Shown here piece by piece: positions 10,886-56,259 of a stretch of DNA of 64,000 bases. The position numbers were made by a program, and so were the translations under genes. Positions within the stretch are counted from its first letter, which is position 1. Every line of letters starts with the position of its first letter. The stretch comes from Bacteroidales bacterium (GTDB taxonomy: Bacteria; Bacteroidota; Bacteroidia; Bacteroidales; FEN-979), in contig JANXZO010000058.1 of assembly GCA_025355465.1 (NCBI GenBank), positions 6,164-70,163 on the forward strand. Reading direction: 5' to 3'. The notes under the pieces are model-generated. The model was not told the origin of the DNA and made no database searches. It was given only the letters and a program-made list of their open reading frames with translations.

Positions 10886-10919
10886 GAGTTAAGAGTGAAG
10901 AGTTAAGAGTGAAGAGTTA
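10886..10919. repeat. Tandem heptamer array (GAGTTAA/GAGTGAA), about 5 units
   Basis: The sequence gagttaagagtgaagagttaagagtgaagagtta lies in the spacer between the permease stop (10967) and the TauE start (10873). Confidence 0.9.
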
Positions 10920-10966
10920 CATCAATATTTCCTAATGAAAGGTGATGGTTTAACAAATATCGATTG

Positions 10967-12754
10967 TCAATTATCGGTCGTTTTTTGTTTGCTGTGACGC
11001 TTGCTATACAAAAAATAAATCACCAGTCCGATGATCAGCCACACCAGAAAGCGCAACCAGTTTGTGATTCCGAGCTGTGCCATCAGGTAGAAGTTGGTAA
11101 GCAGTCCCAGCACCGGTATGAGTGAGAACTCGTTGCGGATGCTGAAAAAAGTGATCAGGACGGCAACGATGATAAAGAGTATCACAGGAAACTCGAACCG
11201 GAAGAGATCGGCCAGTCCGAAGGAGGCAAAACGGGTCATCTCGGGCGGACGCCAGAACCAGAGCAGGGTGAAAACGGCAAGCCAGATCAGCGGCAGGAAG
11301 TAACGGCTGTTGAGGTAGGGAACCCGAAATCCCTTGTCGATATTGAGGTTGCTGTTCTTTTTCCAGCCGTTCTCGAGCACCAGCACGCCACCCGAAACCA
11401 GCACGAAAGCAAAGAGTGTCCCAATGCTGGTAAGGTCGGTCATTTCGGTAAGATTCATGAACAGCGAAGGAACCGCCACGAGAATGCCGGTGATGATCGT
11501 AGCAAACCAGGGAGTTTTGAACCGGGGATGGATCTTCGAAAACGAAGGAGGCAGCAATCCATCGCGGCTCATGCTCATCCAGATACGTGGTTGTCCCACC
11601 TGGAACACCAGCAACACGCTGGCCATGGCGATCACGGCACTTACCGCAATCACGCCCGAAATCTTCGTCAGGTGAAGCTTTTGAAATGCATAGGCCAGTG
11701 GGTCGCCCACACCAAGTTCACCGTAGTGAATCATTCCGGTGAGGACGAGGCTGATCATCACATAGAGCACCGTGGTGATGATGAGGGTCAGGATGATGGC
11801 CCGCGGCAGGTCGCGCCGCGGATTGCGACACTCTTCGGCTGTGGTGGAGATCGCATCAAACCCGATGTAAGCGAAGAAGACTCCCGAAACTCCCTTCAGC
11901 ACACCGGTGAGCCCTTGCGGTGCAAAGGGATGCCAGTTTCCCGGGTCGATGTAAAAGGCCCCGACCCCAATGATCAGCAGGAGGATCCCGATCTTGAGCA
12001 GCACCATCGTGTTGGCCGCCACCTTTGTTTCGTAAATGCCGATGTAGACCAGTCCGGTGATGAAAACCACGATGGCAAAGGCGGGGATGTCGGCAATGAG
12101 CCTGACCCCTCCCACCACCGGGGCCGTTTGCCAGGCTGTATAAGCTTCTCTGAGGGCATCAGAGAGACCGGAGAACGGTACGCCCCGTGCCAACTCCAGC
12201 ATCGCAGCATGGTAACCCCGCGCTGCAGAAAGATAGTCGACCGCCAGGTAGTCGGGCAGATGCAGACCCAAACCACCCAGCAATCCGGTAAAGTATTCGG
12301 ACCAGCTGATGGCCACCGCGATGTTGCCGATGGCATACTCCATGATGAGGTCCCATCCGATGATCCAGGCAATGAGTTCGCCGAAACTGGCATAGGCGTA
12401 AGTATAGGCGCTTCCGCTGATGGGGATGAGGGAGGCGAACTGGGCATAACACAGGGCCGAGAAGGCGCACGCAAGGGCTGTAAAGACAAAGAGCAGGGAC
12501 ACGGCCGGACCTCCGCTGGCAGCAGCGGTGCCGATGGTGCTGAAGATACCGGCACCGATCACTGCTGCAACCCCCAGCCCGGTGAGATCATATACATTCA
12601 GGCTCCGCTTCAGCTCCGAAGTTTGCCCTTCGCCCGATCGGGCATCGCCCAGGATCTGGCTGATCGGTTTCTTCCGGAAAAGGCGGGAGGAGGCCAAGTT
12701 GTAATTTTTCGGTAAAGGTAGGATTTTGACGTTTATCCGGCACCCACGAATCAA
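10967..12754 (-). CDS. APC-superfamily amino acid permease (cationic amino acid transporter-like)
   Basis: About 590 aa and polytopic, with YDLTGLGVAAVIGAGIFSTIG and FAYIGFDAISTTAEE motifs. The ORF-track start at 12754 is TTG, and no in-frame ATG occurs near the N-terminus, so the true start is uncertain. Confidence 0.85.
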   Translation of the reverse strand: MIRGCRINVKILPLPKNYNLASSRLFRKKPISQILGDARSGEGQTSELKRSLNVYDLTGLGVAAVIGAGIFSTIGTAAASGGPAVSLLFVFTALACAFSALCYAQFASLIPISGSAYTYAYASFGELIAWIIGWDLIMEYAIGNIAVAISWSEYFTGLLGGLGLHLPDYLAVDYLSAARGYHAAMLELARGVPFSGLSDALREAYTAWQTAPVVGGVRLIADIPAFAIVVFITGLVYIGIYETKVAANTMVLLKIGILLLIIGVGAFYIDPGNWHPFAPQGLTGVLKGVSGVFFAYIGFDAISTTAEECRNPRRDLPRAIILTLIITTVLYVMISLVLTGMIHYGELGVGDPLAYAFQKLHLTKISGVIAVSAVIAMASVLLVFQVGQPRIWMSMSRDGLLPPSFSKIHPRFKTPWFATIITGILVAVPSLFMNLTEMTDLTSIGTLFAFVLVSGGVLVLENGWKKNSNLNIDKGFRVPYLNSRYFLPLIWLAVFTLLWFWRPPEMTRFASFGLADLFRFEFPVILFIIVAVLITFFSIRNEFSLIPVLGLLTNFYLMAQLGITNWLRFLVWLIIGLVIYFLYSKRHSKQKTTDN

Positions 12755-12921
12755 GGTTTCATCTATTTGCCTTGTAGCGCCTTGTCCGACCGCCCGTCTA
12801 TCAGATAAATAGACGCCTTATCATAGGTTGGGTATAACACATGGAAAGTCCTCCTGCCGTGAGGGTAGTATCAGGTTGATAGGCTATTTTAAATAGTCAT
12901 CAATGATTATCTTTTTTTGGT

Positions 12922-13275
12922 TCACATGGTTGCCCATGCGTTGGGATGATTCATTAATTCCGCCAGATTATCCGGTATTACCTGCCAGCGAAGTCTGAAT
13001 TTATCGATTTCACTTTGATCTGCACAGGTAATAATAAACGAAACTGCATCATTCAATGAATTATGCTCTTTTGCACTATTCATAAGCGTATAATTCTGAT
13101 CAAAGATTTTTATTTCGCACAATTCTGTATATCCACTCGGGGTTTCTCCCAGGGATACAATGTTACCAGCCTCGAAATCAGGTCCAAAAATACTTTTATA
13201 GTAGAGAATGATCTTCGAAATATCACCATTATCCTATCTAAACCAGATACATGGCGCGATTTTATTGTTTTTCAT
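12922..13275 (-). pseudogene. PhnB-like / 3-demethylubiquinone-9 3-methyltransferase-domain (VOC-fold) gene with an in-frame TAG and an internal deletion
   Basis: Hand translation from the ATG at 13275 gives MKNNKIAPCIWFR*DNGDISKIILYYKSIFGPDFE..FIITCADQSEIDKFRLRWQVIPDNLAELM. The TAG is at 13234-13236. The segment normally found between the ..EIDxxW.. and ..WQVIP.. motifs appears to be missing. Confidence 0.55.
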
Positions 13276-13368
13276 GATAGTTCCTCCATTTTATTATTTC
13301 AATTTTTACGAAAAAACTCAGGTGGGCTGAAAGTTCTGTACACGTTGATAATTGCAGCTTTCCTCCCA

Positions 13369-14052
13369 CTAAAAAATAAAAGGGATAAGACGATACTTTA
13401 CCTTTTTACAATACTCCTGATATCCCATTAAATTTTGTTTCAATTCCCTTTCTTCATCAATCGCTCTGTAAACAATAACAGCAATAAGAATCGGAAGAAG
13501 GAACAATCCATAATAAGATCCTAAGGCTACCGGCGTGAACAGTAATAAAACCAACGCTCCGGTGTACATGGGATGTCTCACAACTCCATACAATCCGGTT
13601 GAAACTACCTGTTGCTTTTCCTGTACTTCTATCGTTGCACTTAAAAATGTATTTTGCTTGAAAACATAGTACAACAGTACAAAAGACAGCGCACATATGA
13701 TGTCGGCAGCATAAGAAATTTCCAACGAAACATTTGACCATTTGTTTTTATAATCCAATGCCGATATAAGAAATAATCCAATGAATGCTAAACCGGCAAC
13801 GGACTGAATCACTTTCTGTATTGTTCGTGTTTCCGCAACAGGACCGGCAGCCAACCGACTTTTCAACAAATGTTTGTCGAACAAAAACAGATAAACGGTA
13901 ATCCAAACCACAGAAAATGCAAACACGAACAAATACACCCAGGCCAGGTTGTAATCAAAGCTTCCGTAAGATACAAACAACACCGTGCACAACACACAAA
14001 TCAAAAAAACTAATCCGGCGCCACTTTTCAATATCAATTCGGACTTTTTCAT
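13369..14052 (-). CDS. Isoprenylcysteine carboxyl methyltransferase (ICMT)/phospholipid methyltransferase-family membrane protein
   Basis: Polytopic, with GLYGVVRHPMYTGALVLL. The likely start is MKKSELIL at 14052; the ORF track extends to 14136. Ends with TAG at 13369-13371. Confidence 0.7.
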   Translation of the reverse strand: MKKSELILKSGAGLVFLICVLCTVLFVSYGSFDYNLAWVYLFVFAFSVVWITVYLFLFDKHLLKSRLAAGPVAETRTIQKVIQSVAGLAFIGLFLISALDYKNKWSNVSLEISYAADIICALSFVLLYYVFKQNTFLSATIEVQEKQQVVSTGLYGVVRHPMYTGALVLLLFTPVALGSYYGLFLLPILIAVIVYRAIDEERELKQNLMGYQEYCKKVKYRLIPFIF

Positions 14053-14140
14053 CTCTTGTACCTCCTTTGCAATCTTGTCATTAAATAGAACGGTAACGAC
14101 TGGCTGTTTAGTGACATGTAATGCTTCGCCTCTCAAATTT

Positions 14141-15178
14141 TTAAAAATAAGTTTTTACCGCGAATTCAAATTGGGAGATAAATATCTCTTTGAATTTTGA
14201 CAAGTTATTTTGTTCGTAAAACAGCAACATTGCCTTTTTGTAACCAACCGAGTCAACAGTCCTGAATGACATTGGGCAATGATTGCAACTCATTAAAATC
14301 GCGTTACTCACAATTCTTGCCGTTCTTTTATTTCCGTCCATGAATGGCTGGATGTAAGAAATCAACAATAAAATCAGCAGTGCCTTTTCAAACACATTTT
14401 CTTTCCTATTTACCAAATCGCAAGTTGAAAGTAATGCTTCTCGTATTTTAAATTCGTTGTCCATTGGTCTGTAATTCGTACCCGATATCCCAACCCTCCG
14501 TCTTCTCAGGTTTTTATCAACTGCCAATTCCTTTACCAGAAGGCTGTGTATATCTTCAATTTTCGATATTGTCAGCGGGATCAAGTAATCCGGGTTGTCA
14601 ACAATGAAATCTATGGCATCCTTGTGGTTTAAAAGCATTACTGCCTCTTCTTTTGTCTTCCCGGAAGCAGTCTCCTTTTCTTTAAGTAACCTTTCCGTTT
14701 CAAGTAAGGAGTATGTGTTTCCTTCTATTTGAGATGATTTCCAGCTTAAATCGATGGCAAGTCGCTCCAATTCCCTTCTAAATTCAAATTCTGACAACTG
14801 CGAAATGTTGGCCGTGTATTTTACCTGAAGTTCGGATAGCCATGTAAGTTCAGATTTACTCAGGATTTCAACTCTCGCCAATAAATCAAAAATATCGTGG
14901 TTGAATTCTTCCCTTACCTGCCTTTCGTCAATTTCCTTCTTATAATAATTATCTAAATCTATCGGGTAAAGTAACTCGTATGAAGGTGAAATGAAGTATC
15001 TGGTCCCCTTCCCTATTCCTGTTGAAACCAGATGATTCTTCGCTAATAATTGTGATATTGTTCTTTTGATGGTAGCGTAGCTCGTTGCAGATGCGAACTC
15101 TTTATGAACCTCGCCTGAAGAGCAGTTAGGATGTATTTGAATGAAATTTATAATCTCTATTTGTCTGTTATTTGGCAT
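14141..15178 (-). CDS. Fic-family protein (AMPylase-type) with N-terminal winged-helix
   Basis: Carries the Fic motif HPFMDGNKRTAR (HxFx[DE]GNxRxxR). The N-terminus IINFIQIHPNCSSGEVHKEF looks like an HTH. The likely start is MPNNRQIE at 15178. Confidence 0.85.
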   Translation of the reverse strand: MPNNRQIEIINFIQIHPNCSSGEVHKEFASATSYATIKRTISQLLAKNHLVSTGIGKGTRYFISPSYELLYPIDLDNYYKKEIDERQVREEFNHDIFDLLARVEILSKSELTWLSELQVKYTANISQLSEFEFRRELERLAIDLSWKSSQIEGNTYSLLETERLLKEKETASGKTKEEAVMLLNHKDAIDFIVDNPDYLIPLTISKIEDIHSLLVKELAVDKNLRRRRVGISGTNYRPMDNEFKIREALLSTCDLVNRKENVFEKALLILLLISYIQPFMDGNKRTARIVSNAILMSCNHCPMSFRTVDSVGYKKAMLLFYEQNNLSKFKEIFISQFEFAVKTYF

Positions 15179-15335
15179 ATTCTTACATTGTGGCTCACAA
15201 ATATACGATATACGGCTCACTTTTATCTGCCAATGAGCTAAATTTCTTTAAAAATGAGCCATAACGCCCGACTACTAAACTTATCAAAGGCAGCTTAATC
15301 AGCCACAATCATTTCGAAATTAAGAAACGCCTGCC

Positions 15336-16133
15336 TCAATCGATATATATTTCTCCAGTCATATACAATTTCCCCTCCCCTCCTATATAACATCTGTCAT
15401 CTCTGAACTCACAATACAACTCTCCGCCTCTTTTTGACAATTGCCTTGCAACAAGTTTTCTTTTGTTTAACCGACGGCTCCATAACGGGATAAGAGATGT
15501 ATGTGCTGATCCCGTCACCGGATCTTCGTCAACGCCAGACTGGGGTCCGAAAAAACGTGACACAAAATCAACGGATCTGCTCTCTGCGGTCACAATCAAC
15601 CCTCTTGCTTTGAGTTTCGAGATTCCGGGAAGGTTTGGCGTTAATTCCTTCAAAACCTTCTCATCTTCAAGTATCGCGATCAAGTCAGTTTTGCCCTTAA
15701 GAACTTCTGCTGGCCTGACTCCGATGCAATCTTCTATCTCTTTTGCGACTGAATCATCAACATTTTCCAGATCGTCAGTTGGAAAATCCAACACATAATG
15801 ACCTTCTGTCCTGGTCACCTTTAATATTCCGCTCCTTCTCGACAGAAAACTGATTTCCTTGCCGGATATGTGATAAATCTCAAACAATATCAGGGCTGAT
15901 GCCAGGGTAGCATGGCCGCATAAATCCACCTCTACGGTTGGTGTAAACCACCTTATCTCGAAGTCTTTACCCACAGGTACCACGAAGGCGGTTTCTGCCA
16001 AATTATTTTCATTACCGATCGATTGAAGAAGGTCATCATCCAACCATTGATCCAAAACACAAACTGCGGCAGGATTCCCTTTGAATAACTCCTTTGTAAA
16101 GGCATCTACCTGGTATAGCTTTATTTTTTTCAT
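15336..16133 (-). CDS. PhzF-family isomerase
   Basis: 265 aa with LYQVDAFT..FKGNPAAV, CGHATLA and GSAH, typical of the PhzF/DAP-epimerase-like fold. Confidence 0.82.
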   Translation of the reverse strand: MKKIKLYQVDAFTKELFKGNPAAVCVLDQWLDDDLLQSIGNENNLAETAFVVPVGKDFEIRWFTPTVEVDLCGHATLASALILFEIYHISGKEISFLSRRSGILKVTRTEGHYVLDFPTDDLENVDDSVAKEIEDCIGVRPAEVLKGKTDLIAILEDEKVLKELTPNLPGISKLKARGLIVTAESRSVDFVSRFFGPQSGVDEDPVTGSAHTSLIPLWSRRLNKRKLVARQLSKRGGELYCEFRDDRCYIGGEGKLYMTGEIYID

Positions 16134-16185
16134 TTTGACAGATTTTCAATTTTATAAGGTTGCAATCCGGTTTACCTGTTTTGCT

Positions 16186-16650
16186 TTAATATTCTCCCTT
16201 AATTACAAAATATGACCCCCGGATTGTTCCTGCAAGTATAGATTTCTGCCTGGCAAACTTAAACTTTCCGTTTAACTCCTTTGGCACCTCCATCCCCTCT
16301 GAAAGCTTAAACCCAACGGCTCGCTTTTTGGGATCATCAACCGTGTACAAGACATTGACGGAAAGTCCATCCTCATAAAAGACATAAGCCCACCGGATAT
16401 TTTCCACCTGAAAATTCGATGTTTCCAACGGCCTGGCAGAAAATTCGATATCACGTTCTACTTTTAAAATCCGGTTCACATAATCAAGGGTTTCGCGGCT
16501 TTCGTCAGCCGGAATAACGATAAATTCATGTTTGTACTTTTTCATAAAGTACCGAGCTTCATTAGCCCGTAAACCAGCAAGTTTTTCGGCTACGGGTGAC
16601 GATTCAAAGCCAACTGTGGAGACGTTTTTAAAATCAACAGGGGAGTTCAT
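16186..16650 (-). CDS. Hypothetical protein; possible lipoprotein that has lost its 5' end
   Basis: 154-aa ORF. In-frame upstream codons read ..EEIAFVKLPFVAGCNNTKRKK-MNSPV. That is a lipobox (VAGC) with no upstream start codon before a TAA. Confidence 0.45.
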   Translation of the reverse strand: MNSPVDFKNVSTVGFESSPVAEKLAGLRANEARYFMKKYKHEFIVIPADESRETLDYVNRILKVERDIEFSARPLETSNFQVENIRWAYVFYEDGLSVNVLYTVDDPKKRAVGFKLSEGMEVPKELNGKFKFARQKSILAGTIRGSYFVIKGEY

Positions 16651-16825
16651 TTTCTTCCTTTTAGTATTATTACATCCAGCGACAAACGGTAGTTTTACGA
16701 ATGCGATTTCTTCACCAGCTTATATCATAAATGAGTCGTCAGGTCTGACGGTATCACTTCTACGATTTGCCGAAACACCACCCATTGGATTTTTAGGACT
16801 TCTGTTATCTCCTGCAAAAAAACCG

Positions 16826-18087
16826 TCAAGAGAGATGACCAATTGGTAATGAAAAGTAAAAAGTCGTTCCGGTTCCGACCAAACTTTCGACCCAAATTTT
16901 CCCATTGTTTTTTTCAATAAATTCTTTGCATAGAATCAAACCCAGTCCTGTTCCATGTTCTTTTTGTGTGCCTTGCGTTGAATAAACTTCATTAATTTTG
17001 AATAATTTATTGATTCTCTCTTTTGATATTCCAACTCCAGTGTCGATTACCGAAATGGTTAACTCATTCTGCTTGACAACTGACGTAATTGTAATTTTTC
17101 CATTGGGCTGAGTGAATTTTATTGCATTAGAAATCAAATTTCTCAGCACGGTGCTAAGCATGGCTTTATCGGCATTAACTTGGATGCCAGACGAAAGCTT
17201 ATTTGAAATGATGATAGACTTTTGTTCAGCGTTACCTTTCATTAAAAATATAGCTTCGTTGGCAATTGTTTCTATTTCGCAATATTCAGGTCTGTATTCC
17301 ATCCGGCCAGATTGCGATTGAGCCCATTCCATAAGGTTCATAAGCAAATCCATTGCTCTATTAGTTGATTGCCGCACGATGTCAGCAAATACTCCAATTT
17401 GTTCATAGTCCTTTTCATTGACCTTTTCAAATACTTTAATGCCTTCAGCTAGTGCAAGAAAAGTCACAAATAAAATACCACCACCAATAAATAGGACTTC
17501 GTGTGGCACGCAGTGCCCAGCATGAAGTCCACGTTGAACAAAATCCATTGGTACTGGTTTCCTATGCACTTTACGCCAGAAGTTTCAGTTTAATGGCATC
17601 CGGATGGATTCCGAAAGATAAATTGAGTGGTTCTTTCTTAATCGCAATTGAAACATCACTTTTTGCTCCATTAAAATCTTCGAGTGCATTTTTAGCCAAC
17701 GCCTTGGTCATATATAATCCGGCCTGAGTATAACCAAGTTTTTCAGAAATTTCTAAATCTTTTAATCCATTTTTATTATCATCTAACAAACATTTCATTC
17801 CTCCACGAATAAAATACGCATCACAATTAGTTGGATTAACAGATACTTCTTTATCCATTTTCATAAGTAGACTCCTATAATTTCCATCCTTAATAAGTTT
17901 CGTTACTTCTTCTTTTTTTACACTTTTAAAACTTTGCGTAAAGTAGACTTCAAATTTTGTCTGAAATTGAGATTGTGAAAATGAGGATGTCCAAACAAAA
18001 AAACTAATTGTTATTAAAATTAGACTTTTCGTATGCTTATTGGAGTTGGATAAAAACTTGATTACACGAAAGTTAATTCAATTTAAT
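16826..18087 (-). pseudogene. Decayed signal-peptide/TPR/TM/histidine-kinase sensor gene
   Basis: The upstream frame (18087..17571) reads ..NKHTKSLILITISFFVWTSSFSQ.. plus a TPR-like segment, with no ATG/GTG/TTG start upstream of the internal ATG at 17864; it stops at 17571-17573. A 1-nt frame change leads into ORF 16826..17569, which has a TM segment (VLFIGGGILFVTFLALA), a dimerisation helix and an intact HATPase_c (NLISNAIKFT, DTGVGI, GTGLGL). No H-box histidine is visible where ..SHE/D.. is expected (FLALAEGIKVF). Confidence 0.55.
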
Positions 18088-18277
18088 TTTTATAACTGCT
18101 AACAATTGCCTTGCCGGTAACCCCTTTCTACCCCCAACCTCATCTCTCCTGTTTCAATCGGGAAGACGAAATTGGTCTTCCATTGGTTCTCCTGTTTAGC
18201 GGCCGAATTCACCGTAAACCAGAAGTCAGGACTGGGTGGATATTATTCCATCCCGAGAGTAGTTGGTAGTTCCTATT

Positions 18278-18625: not shown

Positions 18626-18637
18626 AAAAGATAGGTT

Positions 18638-20394: not shown

Positions 20395-20427
20395 CCTGAG
20401 GAATTTGGTCTGACCAAATTACGAAAT

Positions 20428-20502: not shown

Positions 20503-20560
20503 TTGTATCTGTTGAAATTATATTTTAGAAATCAGTTCGATGAAACTTGATCGCTTTTAA

Positions 20561-20845: not shown

Positions 20846-20896
20846 CTTACACCTTTTAGCAAAGATACAATTTTTTTTTTCGACTTTCCCCTGCCT

Positions 20897-26526: not shown

Positions 26527-26610
26527 AACGTTTAACCGCCTATAATACACATGAAATAACCCCCACCCTTATCTGACATCATATTATTTTTCAAAGCCCA
26601 AGCGATGATT

Positions 26611-26675
26611 GATTTACGATTTTAGATGTACGATTTACGATTTTGTGCATTTGTGCATTCGTGCATTCGTGCATT
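26611..26675. repeat. Word array: ACGATTT units followed by four GTGCATT units
   Basis: The sequence is gatttacgattttagatgtacgatttacgatttt + gtgcatt tgtgcatt cgtgcatt cgtgcatt. It occupies much of the 147-nt sigma-to-FecR spacer and overlaps the sigma stop codon. Confidence 0.9.
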
Positions 26676-27219
26676 ATCTCAAAAGCATAATCACCACAAC
26701 ACTAAGGTACTCTCCGAGTCTGTTTCGCATGTGCTGAAGCGCCTTCGACATCTGGGCTTCCACTGTTTTTACAGAGATCTGAAGTCTGTCTGCGATCTCC
26801 TGGTACTTCAGGTTTTCCGAGCGGCTCAACACGAATATCTCCCTGCATTTTTCGGGGAGTTCACCGATTGAACCGGTAATTTTCTCCCGGATATCGGCTT
26901 CCACGAGCCTGTCGGGCTGTTCGTAGTAATCGTTGCCGGGGAGTTGTTCCAGGTCCAGCAGATCATGGCTGAACTTTTTATGGTCGCGGAGGTAGTTGAG
27001 GCAGCGGTTGCGCACTGCGGTGGCAAGATAGCTCTTTACCGGTTTTGACAGGTCAATGCGCTCCCTCTTCTCCCATAGGTTAAGAAAGGCCTCCTGAACG
27101 ATCTCACGGGCTGCTTCACCGTCTTTAACATAGGTAACGGCAAAATGGATCAGCCCTTTGAAGTGGTTTCTGAAAAGTTCTTCAAAGGCAATCTCATCAA
27201 GAAACCGCGGGGTCTCCAT
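26674..27219 (-). CDS. ECF-type RNA polymerase sigma-70 family factor
   Basis: 181 aa with region 2 (VQEAFLNLWEKRE) and a region 4 HTH (LKYQEIADRLQISVKTVEAQMSKAL). Confidence 0.88.
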   Translation of the reverse strand: METPRFLDEIAFEELFRNHFKGLIHFAVTYVKDGEAAREIVQEAFLNLWEKRERIDLSKPVKSYLATAVRNRCLNYLRDHKKFSHDLLDLEQLPGNDYYEQPDRLVEADIREKITGSIGELPEKCREIFVLSRSENLKYQEIADRLQISVKTVEAQMSKALQHMRNRLGEYLSVVVIMLLR

Positions 27220-33490: not shown

Positions 33491-33684
33491 GGTTTAAACT
33501 CAACCTGGAAATCAAATTCAAATCTACAAAATAATCCCCGGATAAGTATTTTTACGTCATTCAAAAGATACTTTCCGGAGGGAGAATACAGGTTTTTCAG
33601 GCTCCACAGAAAAAAATACGCGGAGTTTTACCGGCGCCAGCGAAAATATTGTATTTTTATGGAGACACTAAATTATCTGTACGC

Positions 33685-34614
33685 ATGAAAACAAGAATCT
33701 ATTTACTTCAACTGGTCACGCCCTTGCTGCTGGGCCTTGTGATATTTATCAGTGCTGCGGATCTGCAGGCCCAGCGCAACGGAGGGAAGTCCGCCAAAGG
33801 CGGCACCAACCGCGAAGCCTCCTCCAGGTCGGCCTCCGGTCAGTCGAGAGGCGGCGGCGGCGATATGCAGAAGTCCGGCCAGGGAGGAACGAACAATTCA
33901 ACGGGCAACAGAACCGATGTGTCGGGTGGTAACAAAACCAACGTGTCGGGCGGTAACAATACCAACGTGTCGGGTGGAAACAAAACCAACATCTCGGGTG
34001 GAAACAAGACCAACGTCAGCGGAAACAATGTAAACATCAACAACAGCAAGAATGTGAACATCAACAACAGCCGCACCACGGTGGTGGTGGCCAATCCGCG
34101 GCCCTACCCGCGACCGCCGTACGCCTACGGAGGCCACAGCTATTACGCCTACCATCCTTACTATTATCATCCCTATAAGCCATTCTATTACGGACCGGCT
34201 TTTCATCCCATGGGGTTTTTTATTGCCACCATGGCAGCCACAGCCATCATTGTCACTGTTGCCAGTCAGCAATATCATTACGATCAGGGGGTTTATTATG
34301 TAGCCAGCAACGGTGGTTATACCGTCGTCCCTGCACCGGTCGGGGCTACTGTCAAAACACTTCCTCCTGCCACACAAACCGTCGTGATCAACGAAACCAA
34401 CAACAACTATTATTATGGAGGCACCTATTATGAGAAAAAGCCCGACGGGTATGTGGTGGTTCCTCCAACTGCCGGTTCAGTGGTAGAGAACCTTCCCGAA
34501 GGTGGCAAGGAGGTAAAGGTGGGCGAAGTAACCTATGTTCAGGTAGGCGAAACCTACTATCAGCCCATCGAAAAGGATGGCAAACCGATGTTCGAAGTGG
34601 TGGAGGTGAAGTGA
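33685..34614 (+). CDS. Secreted/membrane protein with an Asn-rich octapeptide repeat, a Tyr/Pro-rich segment and a conserved C-terminal region
   Basis: Starts at MKTRIYLLQLVTPLLLGLVIFISA (ATG at 33685). It has the repeats (NKTNVSGG)n, a segment RPYPRPPYAYGGHSYYAYHPYYYHPYKPFYYGP, a TM segment (FFIATMAATAIIVTVA), and then YYYGGTYYEKKPDGYVVVPPTAG..TYYQPIEKDG. Confidence 0.7.
   Translation: MKTRIYLLQLVTPLLLGLVIFISAADLQAQRNGGKSAKGGTNREASSRSASGQSRGGGGDMQKSGQGGTNNSTGNRTDVSGGNKTNVSGGNNTNVSGGNKTNISGGNKTNVSGNNVNINNSKNVNINNSRTTVVVANPRPYPRPPYAYGGHSYYAYHPYYYHPYKPFYYGPAFHPMGFFIATMAATAIIVTVASQQYHYDQGVYYVASNGGYTVVPAPVGATVKTLPPATQTVVINETNNNYYYGGTYYEKKPDGYVVVPPTAGSVVENLPEGGKEVKVGEVTYVQVGETYYQPIEKDGKPMFEVVEVK
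33919..34035 (+). repeat. 24-bp tandem repeat (about 4.8 units) encoding NKTNVSGG units
   Basis: The units are gtgtcgggtggtaacaaaaccaac / gtgtcgggcggtaacaataccaac / gtgtcgggtggaaacaaaaccaac / atctcgggtggaaacaagaccaac / gtcagcggaaacaatgtaaac. Confidence 0.9.
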
Positions 34615-35937: not shown

Positions 35938-35944
35938 CAATTTT

Positions 35945-35967
35945 AAATCGTAAATCGTAAATCGTAA
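35945..35967. repeat. (AAATCGT)x3 heptamer array
   Basis: aaatcgtaaatcgtaaatcgtaa makes up 23 of the 35 nt between the MFS stop (35973) and the TolC start (35937). Confidence 0.9.
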
Positions 35968-35972
35968 TTCGC

Positions 35973-37535
35973 TCAATGTGCTTCTCCGGCTGCGCTCATC
36001 TGATCACCCCCTATCTTTCGGTTCCGTGCAATGAAGATCAGGGGGAATGAGATGAGAATGAAAATCGTTGCGAACAGGAACGCGTCCAGGTAACTCAGCA
36101 TGAAGGTCTGCTTCATCACAGTAATTTCGATCACCTGGTAAGTCTGTTGCTGCAGGTTTGTCCCGGCCGGCAGCCTCGACTGAAGTCCCTGGAAGACCTG
36201 ATTGTAGCGTTCGGCAAACTGCGCACTGCCGTTGTAAATGTTGCTGATGAGGTCGGTACGGTGTATGGCTACCCGGTGTGCAATGTAATTGTTCATGATG
36301 GCAATACCAAAGGAGCCGCCAAGTTGTCTCATCATGTTGTTCAGCGCCACTCCCTGGGGAATATCGCGTGGCTGAAGTCCGGCCACGGCCATCGCATTCA
36401 GCGGAACGAAAAGGCAGGCCAGTCCGGCGCCCCGGATCATCAGGGGCAGGGCAAAAAATCCCGAGGTAACGTTCAGATCGGCCTGCGACATCAATATCCC
36501 GAATCCCATCAGGGCAATGAAACCGAGGGTCACAAAGATCTTTGGCGAGGCTCCGATCTGCAGCATCTTGCCGATGAAGGGCATGAAGATCAGGGAGAGG
36601 ATGGAGGCCGGCAGCAGCGTGAGCCCGGTTTCGTAGGCCGTATAGCCCAGCACCCTTTGCAGCATCAGGGGAAAGATGAACACCGACGTGAACAGGATAA
36701 ACCCCACGATGAAGGTGAGGATGGTTGTAAGCGCCAGGTTCCGGTCTTTAAGTATGCGCAGCTTCACCACAGGTTCCTTCTGTTTTAGCTCCCACCATAC
36801 AAAGGTTACAAGTCCCACCACCGCGATCACGGTAAACCAGATGATAAGCCGCGAGTCGAACCAGTCTTCCGATTCGCCCCGTTCGAGCACATACTGCAAC
36901 GCGCCGATGCCGATGGTGAGCAGAAAGATCCCCGACCAGTCGATGCGCGGCTTGGCCGTGATGTCGAACCCCCGGGGGATGAACCGGTAGGTCAGGAGAC
37001 TGGCCATGATGCCAAACGGCACATTGATGTAAAATATCAGCGGCCACGCATAGCTGTCGATGATCAGTCCGCCAACTGTTGGTCCGAGCGTGGGGCCAAG
37101 TACCACCCCCATTCCGAAGAGCGCAGCGGCCAGTCCCCGTTGTTTTCCCGGGAAAGTTTCGAACAGGATGGATTGCGAGGTGGAGAGCAGTCCGCCGCCG
37201 CCCAGCCCCTGCACAAAACGCCACAGTACGATCTGCCAGAGCGAGGTCGACATGCCACAGAAGACGGAGGCGATGGTAAAGATGGCGATGGAGGCCATGT
37301 AGTAACGCCGGCGTCCGAAATAGGCTGCCAGAAAACCGGTCATGGGGATGATGATCACGTTGGCAATGGCATAGGAGGTGATCACCCAGGCAATGTCCTC
37401 GATGGAAGCGCCCAGGTTTCCGGCCATCTGGTTCAGCGCCACATTCACAATGGAGGTATCGATCAGCTCCATGATGGCTGCCGAGATGGTGGTGAGCGCG
37501 ATGAATATTTTAGCTGCTTTGTCGAGGGAACTCAT
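35973..37535 (-). CDS. MFS transporter, DHA2 (EmrB/QacA) 14-TM drug-efflux family
   Basis: 520 aa with MELIDTSIVNVAL and GRRRYYMASIAIFTIASVFCG, and a 14-TM layout. Confidence 0.88.
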   Translation of the reverse strand: MSSLDKAAKIFIALTTISAAIMELIDTSIVNVALNQMAGNLGASIEDIAWVITSYAIANVIIIPMTGFLAAYFGRRRYYMASIAIFTIASVFCGMSTSLWQIVLWRFVQGLGGGGLLSTSQSILFETFPGKQRGLAAALFGMGVVLGPTLGPTVGGLIIDSYAWPLIFYINVPFGIMASLLTYRFIPRGFDITAKPRIDWSGIFLLTIGIGALQYVLERGESEDWFDSRLIIWFTVIAVVGLVTFVWWELKQKEPVVKLRILKDRNLALTTILTFIVGFILFTSVFIFPLMLQRVLGYTAYETGLTLLPASILSLIFMPFIGKMLQIGASPKIFVTLGFIALMGFGILMSQADLNVTSGFFALPLMIRGAGLACLFVPLNAMAVAGLQPRDIPQGVALNNMMRQLGGSFGIAIMNNYIAHRVAIHRTDLISNIYNGSAQFAERYNQVFQGLQSRLPAGTNLQQQTYQVIEITVMKQTFMLSYLDAFLFATIFILISFPLIFIARNRKIGGDQMSAAGEAH

Positions 37536-47569: not shown

Positions 47570-47653
47570 GATCGCGGATTTGAATACGAATATAGGTCAA
47601 GTTTTTACATGAACCATAAAACGTTCGGAAAATAGCTTTGGCGAAACAGGGAA

Positions 47654-47986: not shown

Positions 47987-47995
47987 TCCCGGGCA

Positions 47996-48247: not shown

Positions 48248-48274
48248 ATCCGTTGGTATTTTTTTTGAGATCGC

Positions 48275-49729: not shown

Positions 49730-49803
49730 GGTAAATGTTTTTTCATGGGTGATAGATTCGATTTACTCCCATTGCTGATCCGCAAATTAATTTCATAAGG
49801 AAG

Positions 49804-50460
49804 TTATTTCGTGGTAATATTTCGACTTCCTACAGTATTAATTTCGTAGTGAATATCAAAAGCCAGTAAAAAACAATCCTCTGTATTTGGATCAGCATCT
49901 CCTGATCTGTAAAGTCGGACCATTAGAATGCTGGATATTTTTTTATCAGCTTCCGTAATACCGGTTGCTCCAATATTAGTTATTTGCTGTTGCCCGGTAA
50001 CCCCGCATGCAGCAACACTGGTCGAGATCGTTGACACTGTTCCGGCAAATGTTTCATTTATATTCTTCCATTCATAGTCCATGGCCCAAGTAACGTTAGA
50101 TGTACTTGTGCCATTTGGGGCCCAATGAACGTGAGGATAAATGGTCGTCCCTTCTTTCCAGGAGTGGGGCATCTGAATTTCAAAGTAGACATTATTAATA
50201 TTAACTCCGGAAAACTTATAAGCATACAAGGTTCCTTGCATTTGAGAATAGGTGGGATTGGTTCCACCTGACCCTCTAGTGATTAGTGCCACTCTTACAT
50301 CCTCCCAAACAGTTGAACTACCATTAAACTCAAGCGATCCATCCGCTTCTATCTTTGAGTAATTCGTCCCCGGTGTTCCGATTTGAACGTCCTGTGCATT
50401 GAGCAGGTTCCCAATTCCAAAAAGTGCCAGAGTAAACAGAGCAAGAGTAAATTTTTTCAT
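49804..50460 (-). CDS. Secreted hypothetical protein
   Basis: The likely start is MKKFTLALFTLALFGIGNLLNAQ at 50460. About 218 aa and beta-rich, in an AT-rich gene, with no recognised domain. Confidence 0.6.
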   Translation of the reverse strand: MKKFTLALFTLALFGIGNLLNAQDVQIGTPGTNYSKIEADGSLEFNGSSTVWEDVRVALITRGSGGTNPTYSQMQGTLYAYKFSGVNINNVYFEIQMPHSWKEGTTIYPHVHWAPNGTSTSNVTWAMDYEWKNINETFAGTVSTISTSVAACGVTGQQQITNIGATGITEADKKISSILMVRLYRSGDADPNTEDCFLLAFDIHYEINTVGSRNITTK

Positions 50461-50629
50461 AAACAGCAGTTTTAAGTGAGACATTATTGTAATTGTTATT
50501 TTTCTAACACTCAAAGATAATCGGAAATACCCCTGTTGTCAAGATATCTAATAAATTTCCATATAACCGATTCCAAATTTATAATTGATATGAATAAGTT
50601 ATCCTTTTGCTAAGGCGCATAGATCAGAT

Positions 50630-50698
50630 GCAAAATGGCAAAATGGCAAAATGTAAAATAATTATTTTGCCATTTTAGATCTTACCATTTTACCATTT
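50630..50698. repeat. Word array (GCAAAATG units) with a perfect 12-bp hairpin and the left 35-bp inverted repeat
   Basis: The sequence is gcaaaatggcaaaatggcaaaatgtaaaataattattttgccattttagatcttaccattttaccattt. The stem AAATGGCAAAAT (50641-50652) pairs with ATTTTGCCATTT (50664-50675). IR-L spans 50664-50698. Confidence 0.9.
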
Positions 50699-50732
50699 GT
50701 TAACTTTACGTAAACTTATAAATCTTCCAGAC

Positions 50733-51845
50733 ATGGTCAGTTTCGTACGTTCAATGTTTATCTTGCTATCGGTGTGTAGTTTCTTCTGCACCAGTTGTAA
50801 AAGCAACGCTACCGGAGAATTGTCGCCCCCTGAAAAGCTGGAGGTATTCAAGGTTGATGCGCCATTTCGGACGGATAAATACCTCCGCATGGGGTATACG
50901 ATCAGGAGCTGGGAGTTTGCCAAAGACGGGCTGGTCCTGCAGCAGATCCTGGTGATCGACAATACCACCAAAGGGGTTCTGATGACGCTCAACAAAGACG
51001 GTCTGCCCAGGATTCATAAAAGTCCGCTGCCGGCCAACCCATGGTTCCCAAACGACGTTCTTTCGTACTACTACCTCTCCATTCAACTGCCGATCCCGCT
51101 TGGAACAGCTCCACCCGCATCGGTAACCCACCGGTTTGTGTTCCAGGATACGGTGCGGAACCAGCCGGTAACGGTGGATGGCGCCACATTTGCGGGCAAC
51201 ACGACCGGCCAGCCACTGATCATCGCCTCCCCGGTGAAGGGTTCAAATTGGGTCTTTATCAACCAATCGACGCTCGGATACCATTTCAATACCATGTTCT
51301 TTGTGGGCGGCAAAATCGGCACCGGCGAGCGGTATGCCTTTGACAACCTTCAGGTAGATGAGAAGGGTGAGTCATTTTCCGGGGACCCGAAGGTGAATGA
51401 ATCTTACTACAATTACAAGGACACGCTGTATGCCGTGGCGGATGGAACAGTAAAGCTGCTCGTGGACGGACATCCGGAGAACAACGGAAATGCGCACAAC
51501 ATCACCTTCATAACCGCCAACGACCTGGCCGGAAACTATCTCGTATTGGATATGGGAAATGGCAGGTATGCATTTTACTGCCATTGCGTTCCCGGTTCTT
51601 TCATGACACAGGTCGGAAAGGTGGTGCACGAAGGTGACCCCATTGCCCTGCTGGGTAATTCAGGAAACTCCGACTGTCCGCACCTCCATTTTCAGATCAC
51701 CGATTCGGAGGAGCTTTTCATGACCAACGGACAACCTTTCGTGCTGAAAAAATACACCAAGACCGCCGAATTCCCGACACCGGTCACACCTACCGTCATT
51801 ACCAACGCCATGATGGAGGGCAATGTGGTGATGAGCTTCGAATGA
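50733..51845 (+). CDS. M23-family metallopeptidase lipoprotein
   Basis: Starts at MVSFVRSMFILLSVCSFFCTSC (ATG at 50733). The C-terminal LytM/M23 motifs are GDPIALLGNSGNSDCPHLHFQI. Confidence 0.82.
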   Translation: MVSFVRSMFILLSVCSFFCTSCKSNATGELSPPEKLEVFKVDAPFRTDKYLRMGYTIRSWEFAKDGLVLQQILVIDNTTKGVLMTLNKDGLPRIHKSPLPANPWFPNDVLSYYYLSIQLPIPLGTAPPASVTHRFVFQDTVRNQPVTVDGATFAGNTTGQPLIIASPVKGSNWVFINQSTLGYHFNTMFFVGGKIGTGERYAFDNLQVDEKGESFSGDPKVNESYYNYKDTLYAVADGTVKLLVDGHPENNGNAHNITFITANDLAGNYLVLDMGNGRYAFYCHCVPGSFMTQVGKVVHEGDPIALLGNSGNSDCPHLHFQITDSEELFMTNGQPFVLKKYTKTAEFPTPVTPTVITNAMMEGNVVMSFE

Positions 51846-51905
51846 AATGGTAAAATGGCAAGATCTAAAATGGTAAAATCGTACTTTTGCCATTTCGTTA
51901 TTTCG
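51845..51905. repeat. Word array containing the right 35-bp inverted repeat (IR-R 51845-51879)
   Basis: aaatggtaaaatggcaagatctaaaatggtaaaat is the reverse complement of IR-L, with 2 mismatches in 35. It starts at the last base of the M23 stop codon. Confidence 0.9.
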
Positions 51906-52335
51906 CTTTTTCGCCAATTTTAAACCCTATCTTTTTTCTATTTTTCAAGGAAGCTTCTTGTTGTTGGAAAGATTTTAAGTAATCCAGAATAAGCATTATT
52001 TTCTTCTCCTGTGCATTATCGTTATTCTCCAGCGCTATTATCCGTTCCAAAATCTCCTGATGGGTTTCAAGAAATTTTCTCACTTTAGTAAAAACCCTTA
52101 TGATTCGGATATTCATCTGGATTGCCAAATCACTGTTCAAAACGCTGCTTAACATGGCAACTCCCTGCTCAGAAAAAGCCAGTGGTTTCTTTCGCAGACC
52201 CTTGTTCAGCAAATTGGAAGTCACAAATTGTGACTTCCAATTTGCCAGTTCTTCAGAACTTAACTGAAACATAAAATCCTCGGGGAATCGTTTAATATTT
52301 CTCCTTACAGCTTGATTCAACACTTTAGTTTCCAC
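51898..52335 (-). pseudogene. 5'-truncated ORF6N/KilA-N-type DNA-binding gene
   Basis: The ORF reads ..(FYNDLASLYH)VETKVLNQAVRRNIKRFPEDFMFQLSSEE..LAFSEQGVAMLSSVL, which is an ORF6N domain. The usual N-terminal ~25 aa (..IRG.KVMLD.DLA..) are absent, and an in-frame TGA lies just upstream. Confidence 0.6.
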
Positions 52336-52464
52336 GTGATAGAGTGAAGCCAGATCATTGTAAAAAGTAAACTCATTTCAATGGAAAGTTTTTAACAATA
52401 TTATACCAGATGCCAAAACTCAAACCCCAACGACGGCTCGTTCTATTTCAAAATAACCCGCGAC

Positions 52465-52571
52465 ATGGAGGGCAATGTGGTGATGAGCTTCGAATGAAAT
52501 GGTAAAATCGTAAGATCTAAAAAGGTAAAATCGTATTTTTGCCATTTCGCTATTTTGCGATTTTACCATTT
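52465..52571. repeat. Second copy of the M23 3' end plus word array (direct repeat of 51813-51898), extended by further words
   Basis: atggagggcaatgtggtgatgagcttcgaatgaaatggtaaaatcgtaagatctaaaaaggtaaaatcgtatttttgccatttcgc differs from 51813-51898 by about 5 mismatches. It is followed by tattttgcgattttaccattt. Confidence 0.9.
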
Positions 52572-52577
52572 AATTAA

Positions 52578-54194
<1,617 letters not shown>

Positions 54195-54264
54195 GTCACT
54201 TTTGGAGGAAATTTGGAGGATTGAAGGTAAATTTGCAGACAAATAATATAAAACCATCTGCAAC

Positions 54265-54905
54265 GTGAGAACAAACCGATACATTATCTTTCTGACGATC
54301 CTGATAACAGTAGTGCAGTTCACCTCCAATGCCCAGAACGGTCCGCCCTGGGTGAAGTACAATGTTGGCTACAACTACATCCTCCGCGGGATTGATTTTC
54401 CTTCCAACCAGAACAACATCGGCTTCACTGCCGGGGAGTCGCTGACCTCAATAACGGATTCATTGCCGGGTGGCCAAAGCTTTCCGGCGGCTGGAGCGGG
54501 TTCGATAAAACCACCGATGGCGGAACAACGTGGACCATTGCTACCGGCATCACCAACCCACCGATGCATGGCTGTTATGTTTCCGGCAACACCTATTATA
54601 TGACTGATAACGGAGGAAATATCCGGAAATCGACCAACAACGGGATTGCCTGCGGCGATTACGGATTGGTCTGCAGAACCTGCAATGGCGCCTTCACCCT
54701 GAACGGTAAAACGGAAAGCGAAACTCAGCTCTGTCTGAAGGTTTTTAACCCACTTGGAAAGCAAATCTATTCCCTTGATAAGATACAGGTCAACGGAACC
54801 TATTCGCAGCAAATCGATCTGGGCGCAGTTGCTCCGGGATTATACAGCGTGGTTGTGAACATCGGACCCGAAAGGAGCGTTCAAAAGGTTGTGATAACCC
54901 GATAA
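54265..54905 (+). pseudogene. Remnant of a BNR-repeat T9SS cargo gene (frameshifted)
   Basis: ORF 54265..54603 begins with a signal (MRTNRYIIFLTILITVVQFTSNAQ) and a sensible region up to ..IGFTAGESLT. A second frame then reads ..GWSGFDKTTDGGTTWTIATG.., and ORF 54564..54905 ends in a Por tail (LKVFNPLGKQIYSLD..GLYSVVVNIGPERSVQKVVITR). Confidence 0.6.
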
Positions 54906-54924
54906 TTCTTTCAAATGAAAAATT

Positions 54925-54967
54925 GTAAAATGGCAAAATCGTAAAATCGTAATTTGTTTACCATTTG
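54925..54967. repeat. Word array (GTAAAATGG / CAAAATCGT / AAAATCGT ... TACCATTTG)
   Basis: gtaaaatggcaaaatcgtaaaatcgtaatttgtttaccatttg lies between the T9SS remnant stop (54905) and the KP-rich gene stop (54970). Confidence 0.85.
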
Positions 54968-54969
54968 AT

Positions 54970-55203
54970 TTAAGGCCACGGCGGGGCGGGTGGTCCTTTG
55001 GGTTTGTGGGGTTTGGGCGGCTTTTCCGGTTTGGGAGCCTTGGGTTTTGGAGCCTTTGCCGGCTTAGGTGGCTTTTTGGGCTTGGGTGGCTTTCCTGGTT
55101 TCTGGATCTCGGTGTTTATGGAAGTGTTGCCGGAAGCAGTCTGTGTTGCCGGAAAACTACTTACTAAAATCGCGAACGCCAATCCGCAGATCAGTTTTTT
55201 CAT
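54970..55203 (-). CDS. Small secreted Lys/Pro-repeat protein
   Basis: 77 aa with the signal MKKLICGLAFAILVSSFPA, followed by KPGKPPKPKKPPKPAKAPKPKAPKPEKPPKPHKPKGPPAPPWP. Confidence 0.55.
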   Translation of the reverse strand: MKKLICGLAFAILVSSFPATQTASGNTSINTEIQKPGKPPKPKKPPKPAKAPKPKAPKPEKPPKPHKPKGPPAPPWP

Positions 55204-55234
55204 ATCCCTGTTGTTTTTACAAAGGTAGTCAAAT

Positions 55235-55603
55235 TCATTTCACCCACGCCTGGGCCTCCTTCAGGGTGTTGAAAATTTTGGTTTTCCAACCCATCGCATT
55301 CAACTCGGAAAAATAGTGAACCACAATCGGGATGAAATTCTCATCGGTGGTAACCACGGCGATTTTCATCGGATGGTTATTCCAACGCGACGAAGTGCGG
55401 TCGAGGGTACCAATCACCTTTGCATCTCTGACGGTGATACGGTTGTCGGTAACTGCGGAATAGTCAGAGATCTGGTACCTGATGTGTTCAAACCGCCGGT
55501 CGCCATACATGATGTCGTTAAAGGTCTTCACCTCTTCATCAGTCACGGTATCTGAATGGGAAAACAGGGTGCCGTGTTCAAACCATTTTATCTTACATGC
55601 CAT
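55235..55603 (-). CDS. Hypothetical cytoplasmic protein
   Basis: 122-aa intact ORF (MACKIKWFEHGTLFSHSDTVTDEEV..). No domain recognised with confidence. Confidence 0.5.
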   Translation of the reverse strand: MACKIKWFEHGTLFSHSDTVTDEEVKTFNDIMYGDRRFEHIRYQISDYSAVTDNRITVRDAKVIGTLDRTSSRWNNHPMKIAVVTTDENFIPIVVHYFSELNAMGWKTKIFNTLKEAQAWVK

Positions 55604-55615
55604 TGGAGCTGATAT

Positions 55616-56167
55616 TTAGCGTACAACAAGTTTTTGCAGCCTACCGTAATTTCCGTCACCGGCAACCAGCATGCTGTAGGTATTCTGTACCATGAGATAG
55701 TCGCCACCCACCTCCACCACCATCACCTCTTTACCATACCGCGACACCATATCGTTCATGTTGTTTGCCAGGTCGTTGATGGTCGTTTTGTAATCGGAAC
55801 CCAGCCAAAAGGGATAGTAAGACAAACCGATGATGTCGTACCGCATTCCCATCTGCTTTGCCCTCAGCGCCATCGTCACCACCTCCTTTTTGCTGCAATG
55901 ACCGTTGATCTTATCGCTGCCGGGATTCACAAATACACGCAACCTCACTGTGTTGATGCCGTGATCCTGAAGGATTTGCAAACATCCGGACTGAACCCCG
56001 GTAGTGTCGTAAAATTTATACCCCGTAGCCTCCATCTGCTCGAGCCACCCGATGTCGGCGCCACGAACAAACTGCGCCCTGACCGGCAACGCGATACCCA
56101 GTGCGAAAGCCAAACCACAAACCACCAGAGCGTGGCGAACTCCGAAAGAACATTGACACCCAAACAT
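55616..56167 (-). pseudogene. GH53 (arabinogalactan endo-beta-1,4-galactanase)-like gene with a large internal deletion
   Basis: The sequence FVRGADIGWLEQMEATGYKFYD..ILQDHGINTVRLRVFVNP..AKQMGMRY runs directly into DIIGLSYYPFWLGS..VVEVG. The central barrel segment expected between these motifs is missing. Confidence 0.45.
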
Positions 56168-56228
56168 ATCCGGAAGTTTATAAGTTACTCGAGTCCGTAA
56201 AGTTACATTTTTTCGAATAGCCTACTCA

Positions 56229-56259
56229 CCATTTTACCATTTTACCATTTCGCCATTTT
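56229..56259. repeat. Octamer word array (CCATTTTA CCATTTTA CCATTTCG CCATTTT)
   Basis: ccattttaccattttaccatttcgccatttt overlaps the terminal codons of the decayed Por tail. Confidence 0.9.

Follow-up and report, generated by a model that had tools for sequence, protein, structure and literature searches.

The short tandemly repeated repetitive (STRR) sequences of Calothrix and Nostoc are cyanobacterial families of tandem heptamers, which are dispersed in the non-coding DNA of one lineage and whose function is unexplained; the words of STRR1-3 are CCCCAGT, TTGGTCA and CAACAGT. Another group of intergenic multi-copy elements comprises the repetitive extragenic palindromic sequences (REP), bacterial interspersed mosaic elements (BIME) and REP doublets forming hairpins (REPIN) of Enterobacteria and Pseudomonas, which are palindromic and occur in either orientation. 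For prokaryotes in general, long simple sequence repeats (LSSRs) with units of 5-11 nt have been described (Mrazek, Guo and Shah 2007, as summarized in PMC4679880). The heptamers GGGAATC of Xanthomonas and GGGGAYT of Nostoc are 89-93% intergenic, lie near the 5' open reading frame (ORF), are rare in divergent spacers and vary in length between species (Rehm et al. 2015, PMC4692102). Direct repeats of the word TAACTGA, together with other heptamer arrays, occur in Beggiatoaceae, cyanobacteria and five Bacteroidetes including Paludibacter; they are intergenic, comprise 2-43 copies and contain stop codons in the forward orientation (MacGregor 2015, PMC4679880). Here we describe tandem arrays of 7-8-nt words at eight intergenic sites in a 64-kb stretch of contig JANXZO010000058.1 from a Bacteroidales bacterium (in the following the window) and compare them with their counterparts in related genomes.

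A search of the whole window with Tandem Repeats Finder (TRF; score of at least 40, period 7 or 8) detected 11 arrays, which are distributed over eight sites and built from the word families AAAATGGY, AAATCGT, GTGCATTY and GAGTKAA. The original prediction had listed eight intergenic sites, and all of them were found by TRF and in the sequence itself at, or only a few bases from, the expected positions. In 100 dinucleotide-preserving shuffles of the window no such array arose, and three consecutive AAATSG words occur four times in the window, compared to an expected number of 0.01. All 11 arrays are intergenic and none lies inside an ORF. The sites are the following:

10886-10919, minus strand: permease-TauE array (TRF 10886-10917), a direct heptamer repeat with about 5 units, TAACTCT/TCACTCT in the mRNA sense, ending 13 nt before the TauE ATG; flanked by AA_permease (10967-12754) and TauE (10088-10873), both assigned by Pfam
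26645-26675, minus strand: sigma-FecR octamer array (same limits in TRF), in the mRNA sense (TGCACGAA)x2 (TGCACAAA)x2, beginning at the TAA stop that ends the ECF sigma gene (26674-27219, minus strand, Pfam), downstream of which FecR is located (Pfam)
26611-26643, minus strand: second block of the sigma-FecR site (same limits in TRF), AAATCGT/AAAATCGT units plus one odd unit ACATCT, upstream of a conserved FecR leader of about 55 nt
35944-35971, minus strand: MFS-TolC array (same limits in TRF), in the mRNA sense (ACGATTT)x3-4, spanning from just past the TGA stop of the MFS gene (35973-37535, minus strand, Pfam; partner OEP/TolC) to a point some 11-17 nt ahead of the TolC ATG
50630-50653 and 50664-50698: TRF arrays of the first hairpin site (copy A, see below)
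51845-51883: TRF array of the second hairpin site (copy B)
52497-52535 and 52537-52571: TRF arrays of the third hairpin site (copy C)
54919-54967, plus strand: octamer array (TRF 54919-54952), AAAATTGT AAAATGGC (AAAATCGT)x2 with a short inverted CCATTT tail
56228-56259, minus strand: octamer array (same limits in TRF), minus-strand reading AAAATGGC GAAATGGT (AAAATGGT)x2, beside a truncated GH53 gene

The arrays are real and do not represent an assembler artefact, as they are matched letter for letter by independent Logan contigs of four sediment-metagenome runs. The site at 10886-10919 is also identical in Logan contigs of two further runs (L001, L002). Unit-number variants were not seen in the Logan contigs of these runs, in which minor alleles are concealed. 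In regard to the simple sequence repeats of phase variation, in which a change of units within an ORF or between promoter elements switches expression, the arrays lie outside ORFs, in operon spacers or at gene ends. Three of them had been assigned to operon spacers, and the Pfam matches to AA_permease/TauE, ECF sigma/FecR and MFS/OEP confirm this. The view that the others sit at the boundaries of gene remnants applies to the ORF6N fragment, the GH53 fragment and the lone Por_Secre_tail ORF, but not to the M23 gene, which looks intact. The array at 54919-54967 is located between two convergent ORFs, the Por_Secre_tail fragment and a small ORF on the minus strand (Pfam). A repeat of another class was detected in the ORF at 33649-34614, where a 24-nt unit is repeated 4.6 times (33907-34016; TRF score 150) and, being in frame, encodes an 8-residue repeat.

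In several aspects the arrays conform to the known repeat types. They show the properties of LSSRs, namely head-to-tail units of the 5-11-nt class beyond what the base composition yields, a predominantly intergenic location, and variation of unit number and sequence at the same site. As in LSSRs and in the Xanthomonas and Nostoc heptamers, tandem units of the 7-nt class occur overwhelmingly between genes and belong to a few word families, and they are probably present at many loci of the genome, as their density in the window and the blocks shared within the metagenome suggest. With the Xanthomonas and Nostoc heptamers they further share the position near the upstream ORF, the scarcity between divergent genes, the occasional inverted pairs and the variation in length and sequence at a given site. 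They differ from these heptamers since the words of the window are A/T-rich instead of G-rich, which makes a G-quadruplex impossible, since octamers are here as common as heptamers, since blocks of different words are joined into composites, and since the hosts are uncultured Bacteroidales. The resemblance to the cyanobacterial STRRs, which had been pointed out from the sequence, is an apt comparison, but the words and the phylum are different and none of the specific STRR words is matched, so that it is an analogy and no membership. The remark that no described equivalent was known in Bacteroidota is not entirely correct, as heptamer arrays are known from five Bacteroidetes including Paludibacter (MacGregor 2015, PMC4679880). 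The TAACTCT/TCACTCT array, 13 nt before the TauE ATG, is similar to the TAACTGA repeats in its placement and comes nearest to them in its unit (10886-10919), which is nevertheless not TAACTGA; moreover, a placement at stop codons is here commoner than one at start codons, and the 8-nt units and hairpin composites of the window are not among the features described for the TAACTGA repeats (PMC4679880). Repeats of this class have been reported before for cyanobacteria, Xanthomonas, Beggiatoaceae and some Bacteroidetes; the observation is solid, but its novelty is modest.

The most informative evidence comes from orthologous spacers, whose comparison had been proposed in order to find differences in unit number. 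Such differences were indeed found at the MFS-TolC and sigma-FecR sites. A metagenome scan with the MFS protein yielded 79 loci. In the clade of nine to which the window belongs on the MFS tree, the words found in the MFS-TolC spacer are ACGATTT (window), GAATCGT, GAATATY/GAATGTC, ACAATGT and CTCATSR. They are related stepwise, and GAATCGT is nested within the GAATATY group on the MFS tree, as expected for a stepwise drift in place. Two members with 94.9% nucleotide identity over 5.7 kb (L124 and L131) possess 8 and 5 units of the same word, respectively, which fits the proposed slippage-prone spacers. The sister clade (n=9) has plain A-rich MFS-TolC spacers of about 45 nt, except for one 20-nt repeat (L144). 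At the permease-TauE site, four related genomes with 84-90% identity in TauE carry four different arrays, which are TAACTCT/TCACTCT, (CCACATC)x7, (GAGGTAGC)x3 (GAAATGGT)x2, and (AAAAYGGT)x5 followed by (GTCACCT)x4. The third of these (L205) occupies the entire 22 nt from stop to ATG.

The sigma-FecR spacer shows the same kind of variation. One relative (L214, FecR 68% identical) has the same word starting from the same TAA stop, with 8 units versus 4 in the window, while the array is absent in two other relatives. In one of the latter two (L213, 2405-2430), from the Prolixibacteraceae metagenome-assembled genome (MAG) CAYHCQ, two ACTCTGTG units overlap the TGA stop of the sigma gene, and this two-unit repeat gives the impression of an array that is just forming, with the stop codon as its seed. 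The stretch of about 55 nt immediately before the FecR start is a leader that is conserved in four genomes (window 26527-26585, minus strand; L213, L214 and L215, 2445-2500), while the remaining spacer varies. It reads AGATAAGGGT..(T/C)GTGTATTATA... and could serve the anti-sigma and TonB-receptor genes as an internal promoter or as a regulatory RNA. Judged from the orthologous spacers, arrays appear to persist for a long time at a site, whereas the unit number seems to change fast and the word and even the strand seem to be free to change. This turnover of word and orientation is hard to square with an iteron that binds a protein or with an RNA motif of specific sequence.

Folding of the transcribed strand sorts the sites into two architectures, direct unstructured arrays and copies of a hairpin element. 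The arrays in operon spacers are unstructured, with free energies (dG) of 0.0 for permease-TauE and -1.7 for MFS-TolC; the value of -9.2 for sigma-FecR is the same as in shuffles, and the fold of 54919-54967 is likewise indistinguishable from shuffles. Stable, imperfect hairpins are formed at 50620-50705 (dG -22.1, z -4.9), 51835-51925 (dG -20.5, z -2.5) and 52487-52580 (dG -30.3, z -6.2), and at each of these sites a block of AAAATGG-type words stands opposite a block of CCATTTT-type words. The stretches 50630-50698, 51845-51905 and 52497-52571 had been taken for simple arrays, but they align as copies A, B and C of one composite element of about 95 nt, all within 2 kb. The copies have the odd unit AAGATCT and an identical switch point between forward and reverse words in common, and the orientation of copy A is opposite to that of B and C:

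50620-50705, minus strand: copy A, upstream of the M23 peptidase gene, AAAATGGC words opposite CCATTTT words, odd unit AGATCT
51845-51930, plus strand: copy B, beginning with the final base of the M23 stop codon
52497-52585, plus strand: copy C, extending to the ABC-F start codon
52462-52496, plus strand: duplicate of the M23 3' end, 33 nt, MEGNVVMSFE*, joined to copy C

Copies B and C both carry the last 33 nt of the M23 ORF, which indicates that at copy C the duplication or conversion tract reached beyond the array, and Logan unitigs are interrupted exactly at the duplicated stretches. The suggestion that the arrays act as recombination substrates is therefore backed locally, by the three element copies and by the duplication that extends 33 nt into the M23 coding end. 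An imperfect palindrome with a stable hairpin, as is typical of REP-type elements, is present at only three of the eight sites (dG -20 to -30, z -2.5 to -6.2). Copies A, B and C resemble REP, BIME and REPIN in being imperfect palindromes at gene borders that occur in several copies and in either orientation, but their arms consist of tandem words, in arrays that vary in length. The AGATCT-type module has no match in 215 fetched loci, and AGATCT is a variant array unit and no conserved core motif. Not one of the array hairpins was recognized in a scan for intrinsic terminators, which overall made as many calls as expected from shuffles, and an Rfam search of 50400-56500 with a permissive threshold gave chance-level matches only.

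Copies outside the window were found as well. The 36-nt block 26640-26675 has an identical copy in another 6.9-kb contig of equal depth (Logan). Over 26612-26635, the summed depth of Logan contigs climbs from about 20 to about 1100, which implies that the ACGATTT/TAGATGT-type block is common to many metagenome contigs. We also considered whether a joint between 50653 and 56231, which is present in one Logan contig of run X4 with 13 other letters in between and at the organism's own depth, represents a 5.6-kb deletion allele. This was rejected, since only 22 nt support one side and the contig probably stems from another AAAATGG array locus.

In order to see how far the arrays are distributed, one genome per species was scanned for (AAAATSGY)x3. 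This resulted in at least 119 stretches, among which the window's own genome is absent; the counts per taxon are lower bounds and may depend on the scan order. According to their titles, about 85 of the 119 matches listed belong to Bacteroidota. They are concentrated in a few MAGs of uncultured Bacteroidales, namely CAIWMX (at least 19 loci), JBBQUQ (at least 8), CAJBYO (at least 6) and CAWDBP (at least 5). MAGs of Saprospiraceae and Prolixibacteraceae are also present, and among the matches listed other phyla contribute scattered single matches. Further arrays near these matches are built from other words (GAAATGGT, GGTAGCGA, CCACCTGT, AAATCGT, AAGAGTT and CGAAGGA). Arrays with 7- and 8-nt units appear to be a lineage-wide class that is typical of a clade of uncultured Bacteroidales, with the sites of the window as local members.

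The placement of the arrays was analyzed with naive ORF calls in 120 loci (892 kb), in which each AAAATSG array was oriented forward. Array bases fall into naive ORFs in 28% of the cases, compared to 89% of all bases. The following counts of arrays are not independent, since several can come from one spacer:

Arrays by spacer type: co-directional sense 46, co-directional antisense 21, convergent 16, divergent 6
Background gene pairs: co-directional 450, convergent 77, divergent 92

Divergent spacers are hence depleted of arrays (6/89 versus 92/619 background pairs). The arrays are also nearer to stops than to starts: the distance to the stop codon is at most 3 nt in 61 of 230 arrays, whereas 24 of 161 come as close to a start codon. 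Each of the common sense-strand words holds a stop codon (TAG in GGTAGCGA, TGA in GTGAAATG, TAA in GGTAAAAT), and their complements hold none. As 8 mod 3 is 2, three units of an octamer close all three frames. No function is needed for this pattern of placement and strand, since a passive exclusion of the arrays from ORFs, or their seeding at stop codons, is a sufficient explanation.

We consider it probable that the arrays are long simple-sequence repeats of the STRR/LSSR type, which are made and homogenised by slippage, are sometimes copied locally and are tolerated as AU-rich spacers. Replication slippage in unconstrained intergenic DNA would create the arrays and keep them homogeneous. Once established, an array would be long-lived in its spacer, its word drifting by concerted evolution and its unit number shifting quickly. 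Expansion would come to a halt at a constraint, in most cases the stop codon of the upstream gene and the leader of about 15-45 nt of the next gene. Because of the stops in the sense-orientation words, with three units of 7 or 8 nt closing all three frames, such arrays would not be able to survive inside genes. Composites might occasionally be copied by local duplication or ectopic recombination, as the three copies of about 95 nt and the identical 36-nt GTGCATT block suggest. A word-specific function would not be required. The direct arrays would give rise to unstructured AU-rich intercistronic RNA, which might be harmless or mildly favourable, and the inverted blocks to imperfect hairpins at gene borders. 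AU-rich unstructured spacers would suit the Bacteroidia, since initiation there does not involve Shine-Dalgarno pairing; it is described as being tuned by low mRNA structure and A-rich positions instead (PMC6847099).

Several observations weigh against this explanation. First, a heptamer array is present in the MFS-TolC spacer of all nine members of the window's clade on the MFS tree, and such a complete presence throughout a clade at one operon spacer could equally mean selection. Second, there is a sense-strand bias of roughly 2:1 (46 versus 21). Third, a small vocabulary (AAAATGGY, GAAATGGT, GGTAGCGA, AAATCGT and CACCTGT) recurs at unrelated loci and in many genomes, which is not predicted by independent slippage alone. 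Fourth, the blocks in CAIWMX (AM-2014_bin-2482; loci L016-L123) follow a fixed 5'-to-3' order of GGTAGCGA, GAAATGGT and AAAATGGY (7:0, 12:1 and 3:0), which independent slippage leaves unexplained. In other genomes the last two blocks, GAAATGGT and AAAATGGY, show no consistent order (3:4). Finally, a hairpin element is present in two direct copies at one locus (L084), and its odd unit series recurs at a locus from a different MAG (L091). The shared vocabulary, the fixed block order and the unit series of L084 and L091 keep a dispersal of the arrays and a functional role of their RNA alive as minority explanations. After the composites in CAIWMX there are often C-rich CCACCTGT or CACCCGT blocks. 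Such C-rich blocks after A-rich blocks in relatives were considered as Rho-loading sites, but this idea was rejected because of G-rich counter-examples (L129, L025) and because the window has no such block.

Among the alternatives, a role as cis elements at the RNA level fares best, although we still regard it as unlikely. According to this explanation, the sense arrays would be three-frame stop pads and unstructured landing or re-initiation pads for ribosomes, and the inverted blocks would be 3' hairpins, acting as REP/BIME-like terminators or stabilisers. The sense bias and the depletion in divergent spacers fit well, as do the many arrays that begin within 3 nt of a stop codon and the stop codon in every sense-strand word but in none of the reverse-strand words. 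It is also in line with the 22-nt spacer of L205 that consists entirely of array, with the MFS-TolC array in each of the nine clade members, and with the dG near 0 of the direct arrays next to the stable hairpins of the inverted blocks (z -5 to -9). However, stop content and strand bias can both result from passive exclusion from ORFs, the sister clade manages without an array in the same operon, and neither word nor orientation nor length is conserved. Furthermore, the terminator scan calls no array hairpin, and the spacer that holds copy A is divergent, so that no gene reads into this copy.

It is about as improbable that the composite arrays belong to the non-autonomous mobile elements or to those dispersed by recombination, comparable to MITEs (miniature transposable elements with inverted repeats) or REPINs but built from words, which insert at gene borders and are then altered by slippage. 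This might account for the three copies within 2 kb, two direct and one inverted, for the identical 36-nt block in another contig of equal depth and the ACGATTT/TAGATGT block in many metagenome contigs, for the hairpin copies of L084 and the matching unit series of L091, and for the fixed block order in CAIWMX and the vocabulary common across genomes. However, neither terminal inverted repeats nor target-site duplications were observed, there is no transposase near the arrays within the window, and all traceable copies are local. The words at orthologous sites change stepwise and in situ along the gene tree, and the AGATCT-type module was found in 0 of 215 fetched loci.

Both ideas can be combined in the assumption that the arrays, instead of being passive debris of slippage, form a self-propagating, recombination-dispersed intergenic family, comparable to REPIN and BIME but built from words, whose words serve as three-frame stop/restart RNA pads that insulate or couple cistrons. 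TAAAATGG also reads as a stop-AA-AUG junction. Such a family would cover the vocabulary in common, the constant order of blocks that some genomes show and the retention of an array in every clade member, but we rank it just behind the two preceding explanations and consider it doubtful. The original prediction had favoured a role at the DNA level, on the grounds that the same word occurs in both orientations relative to transcription. This is correct as an observation, since the two operons are transcribed from the minus strand, with ACGATTT in the mRNA of MFS-TolC and AAATCGT in that of sigma-FecR, but orientation alone is no indication of such a role, and there is in fact the sense bias. That the arrays are sites for a sequence-specific protein (of the iteron type, a nucleoid protein or an uptake-signal receptor) is very improbable, for although the same words occur in both orientations at many loci and there are inverted word pairs at gene ends, as in the DNA uptake sequences of Neisseria, the same spacer in relatives contains unrelated or reverse-complement words or, as in the sister clade, no array, so that the conserved repeat at a conserved site typical of iterons is missing, the 7-8-nt units come in variable numbers, many word families coexist within one genome, and the Pfam matches of the window neighbours include no rep or origin genes.

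The genes around the hairpin copies were assigned by Pfam:

50733-51845: M23 peptidase, gene looks intact
51898-52335: ORF6N ORF, N-terminally truncated
52584-54194: ABC-F
Further downstream: a lone Por_Secre_tail ORF and the truncated GH53 gene

The inverted copies A and B flank the gene of the M23 lipoprotein peptidase (50664-51879), and this bracketing could, in principle, permit inversion or a cassette-like exchange. The ORF6N remnant owes its final codons and its stop (..GEKAK*, 51898-51915) to the right arm of copy B, where they are encoded by the reverse strand of the array; this is an example of an array that lengthens an ORF call. In relatives, ABC-F is preceded by a promoter of the Bacteroidetes type and a leader (GTACCTTTGCAC ... 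AACATAACAAACA ... AATTAAATG; L066 2500-2568, L210 5940-6000, L212 5940-6000), in place of which copy C stands in the window (52497-52583). In every relative (L066, L210, L211 and L212) the first ABC-F protein (536 aa) is directly followed by a second one (547 aa). The window has no such second gene, and the region after ABC-F (52584-56400) contains fragments instead, namely the Por_Secre_tail ORF, a small G/P-rich ORF and the truncated GH53. The region upstream of the first ABC-F gene is different in each relative, which points to a hotspot of gene gain and loss. We considered L066, where the array is absent, as an empty-site control for the element upstream of ABC-F, but rejected it, since the synteny upstream of ABC-F differs in every relative and there is thus no clean empty site.

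For the annotation of MAGs of Bacteroidales, it should be considered that the arrays break k-mer assemblies and can lengthen or truncate ORF calls. Although repeats of the heptamer class date back in the literature to the STRR papers, their origin, their shared vocabularies and any function are still unexplained. Arrays in conserved operon spacers offer a natural experiment in this respect, as dozens of relatives from metagenomes show, for each site, the rate at which units are gained, the drift of the word and the loss of the array. The arrays thereby open the questions whether they are neutral debris or selected, and whether the content of a spacer is relevant to translation in organisms that initiate without Shine-Dalgarno pairing.

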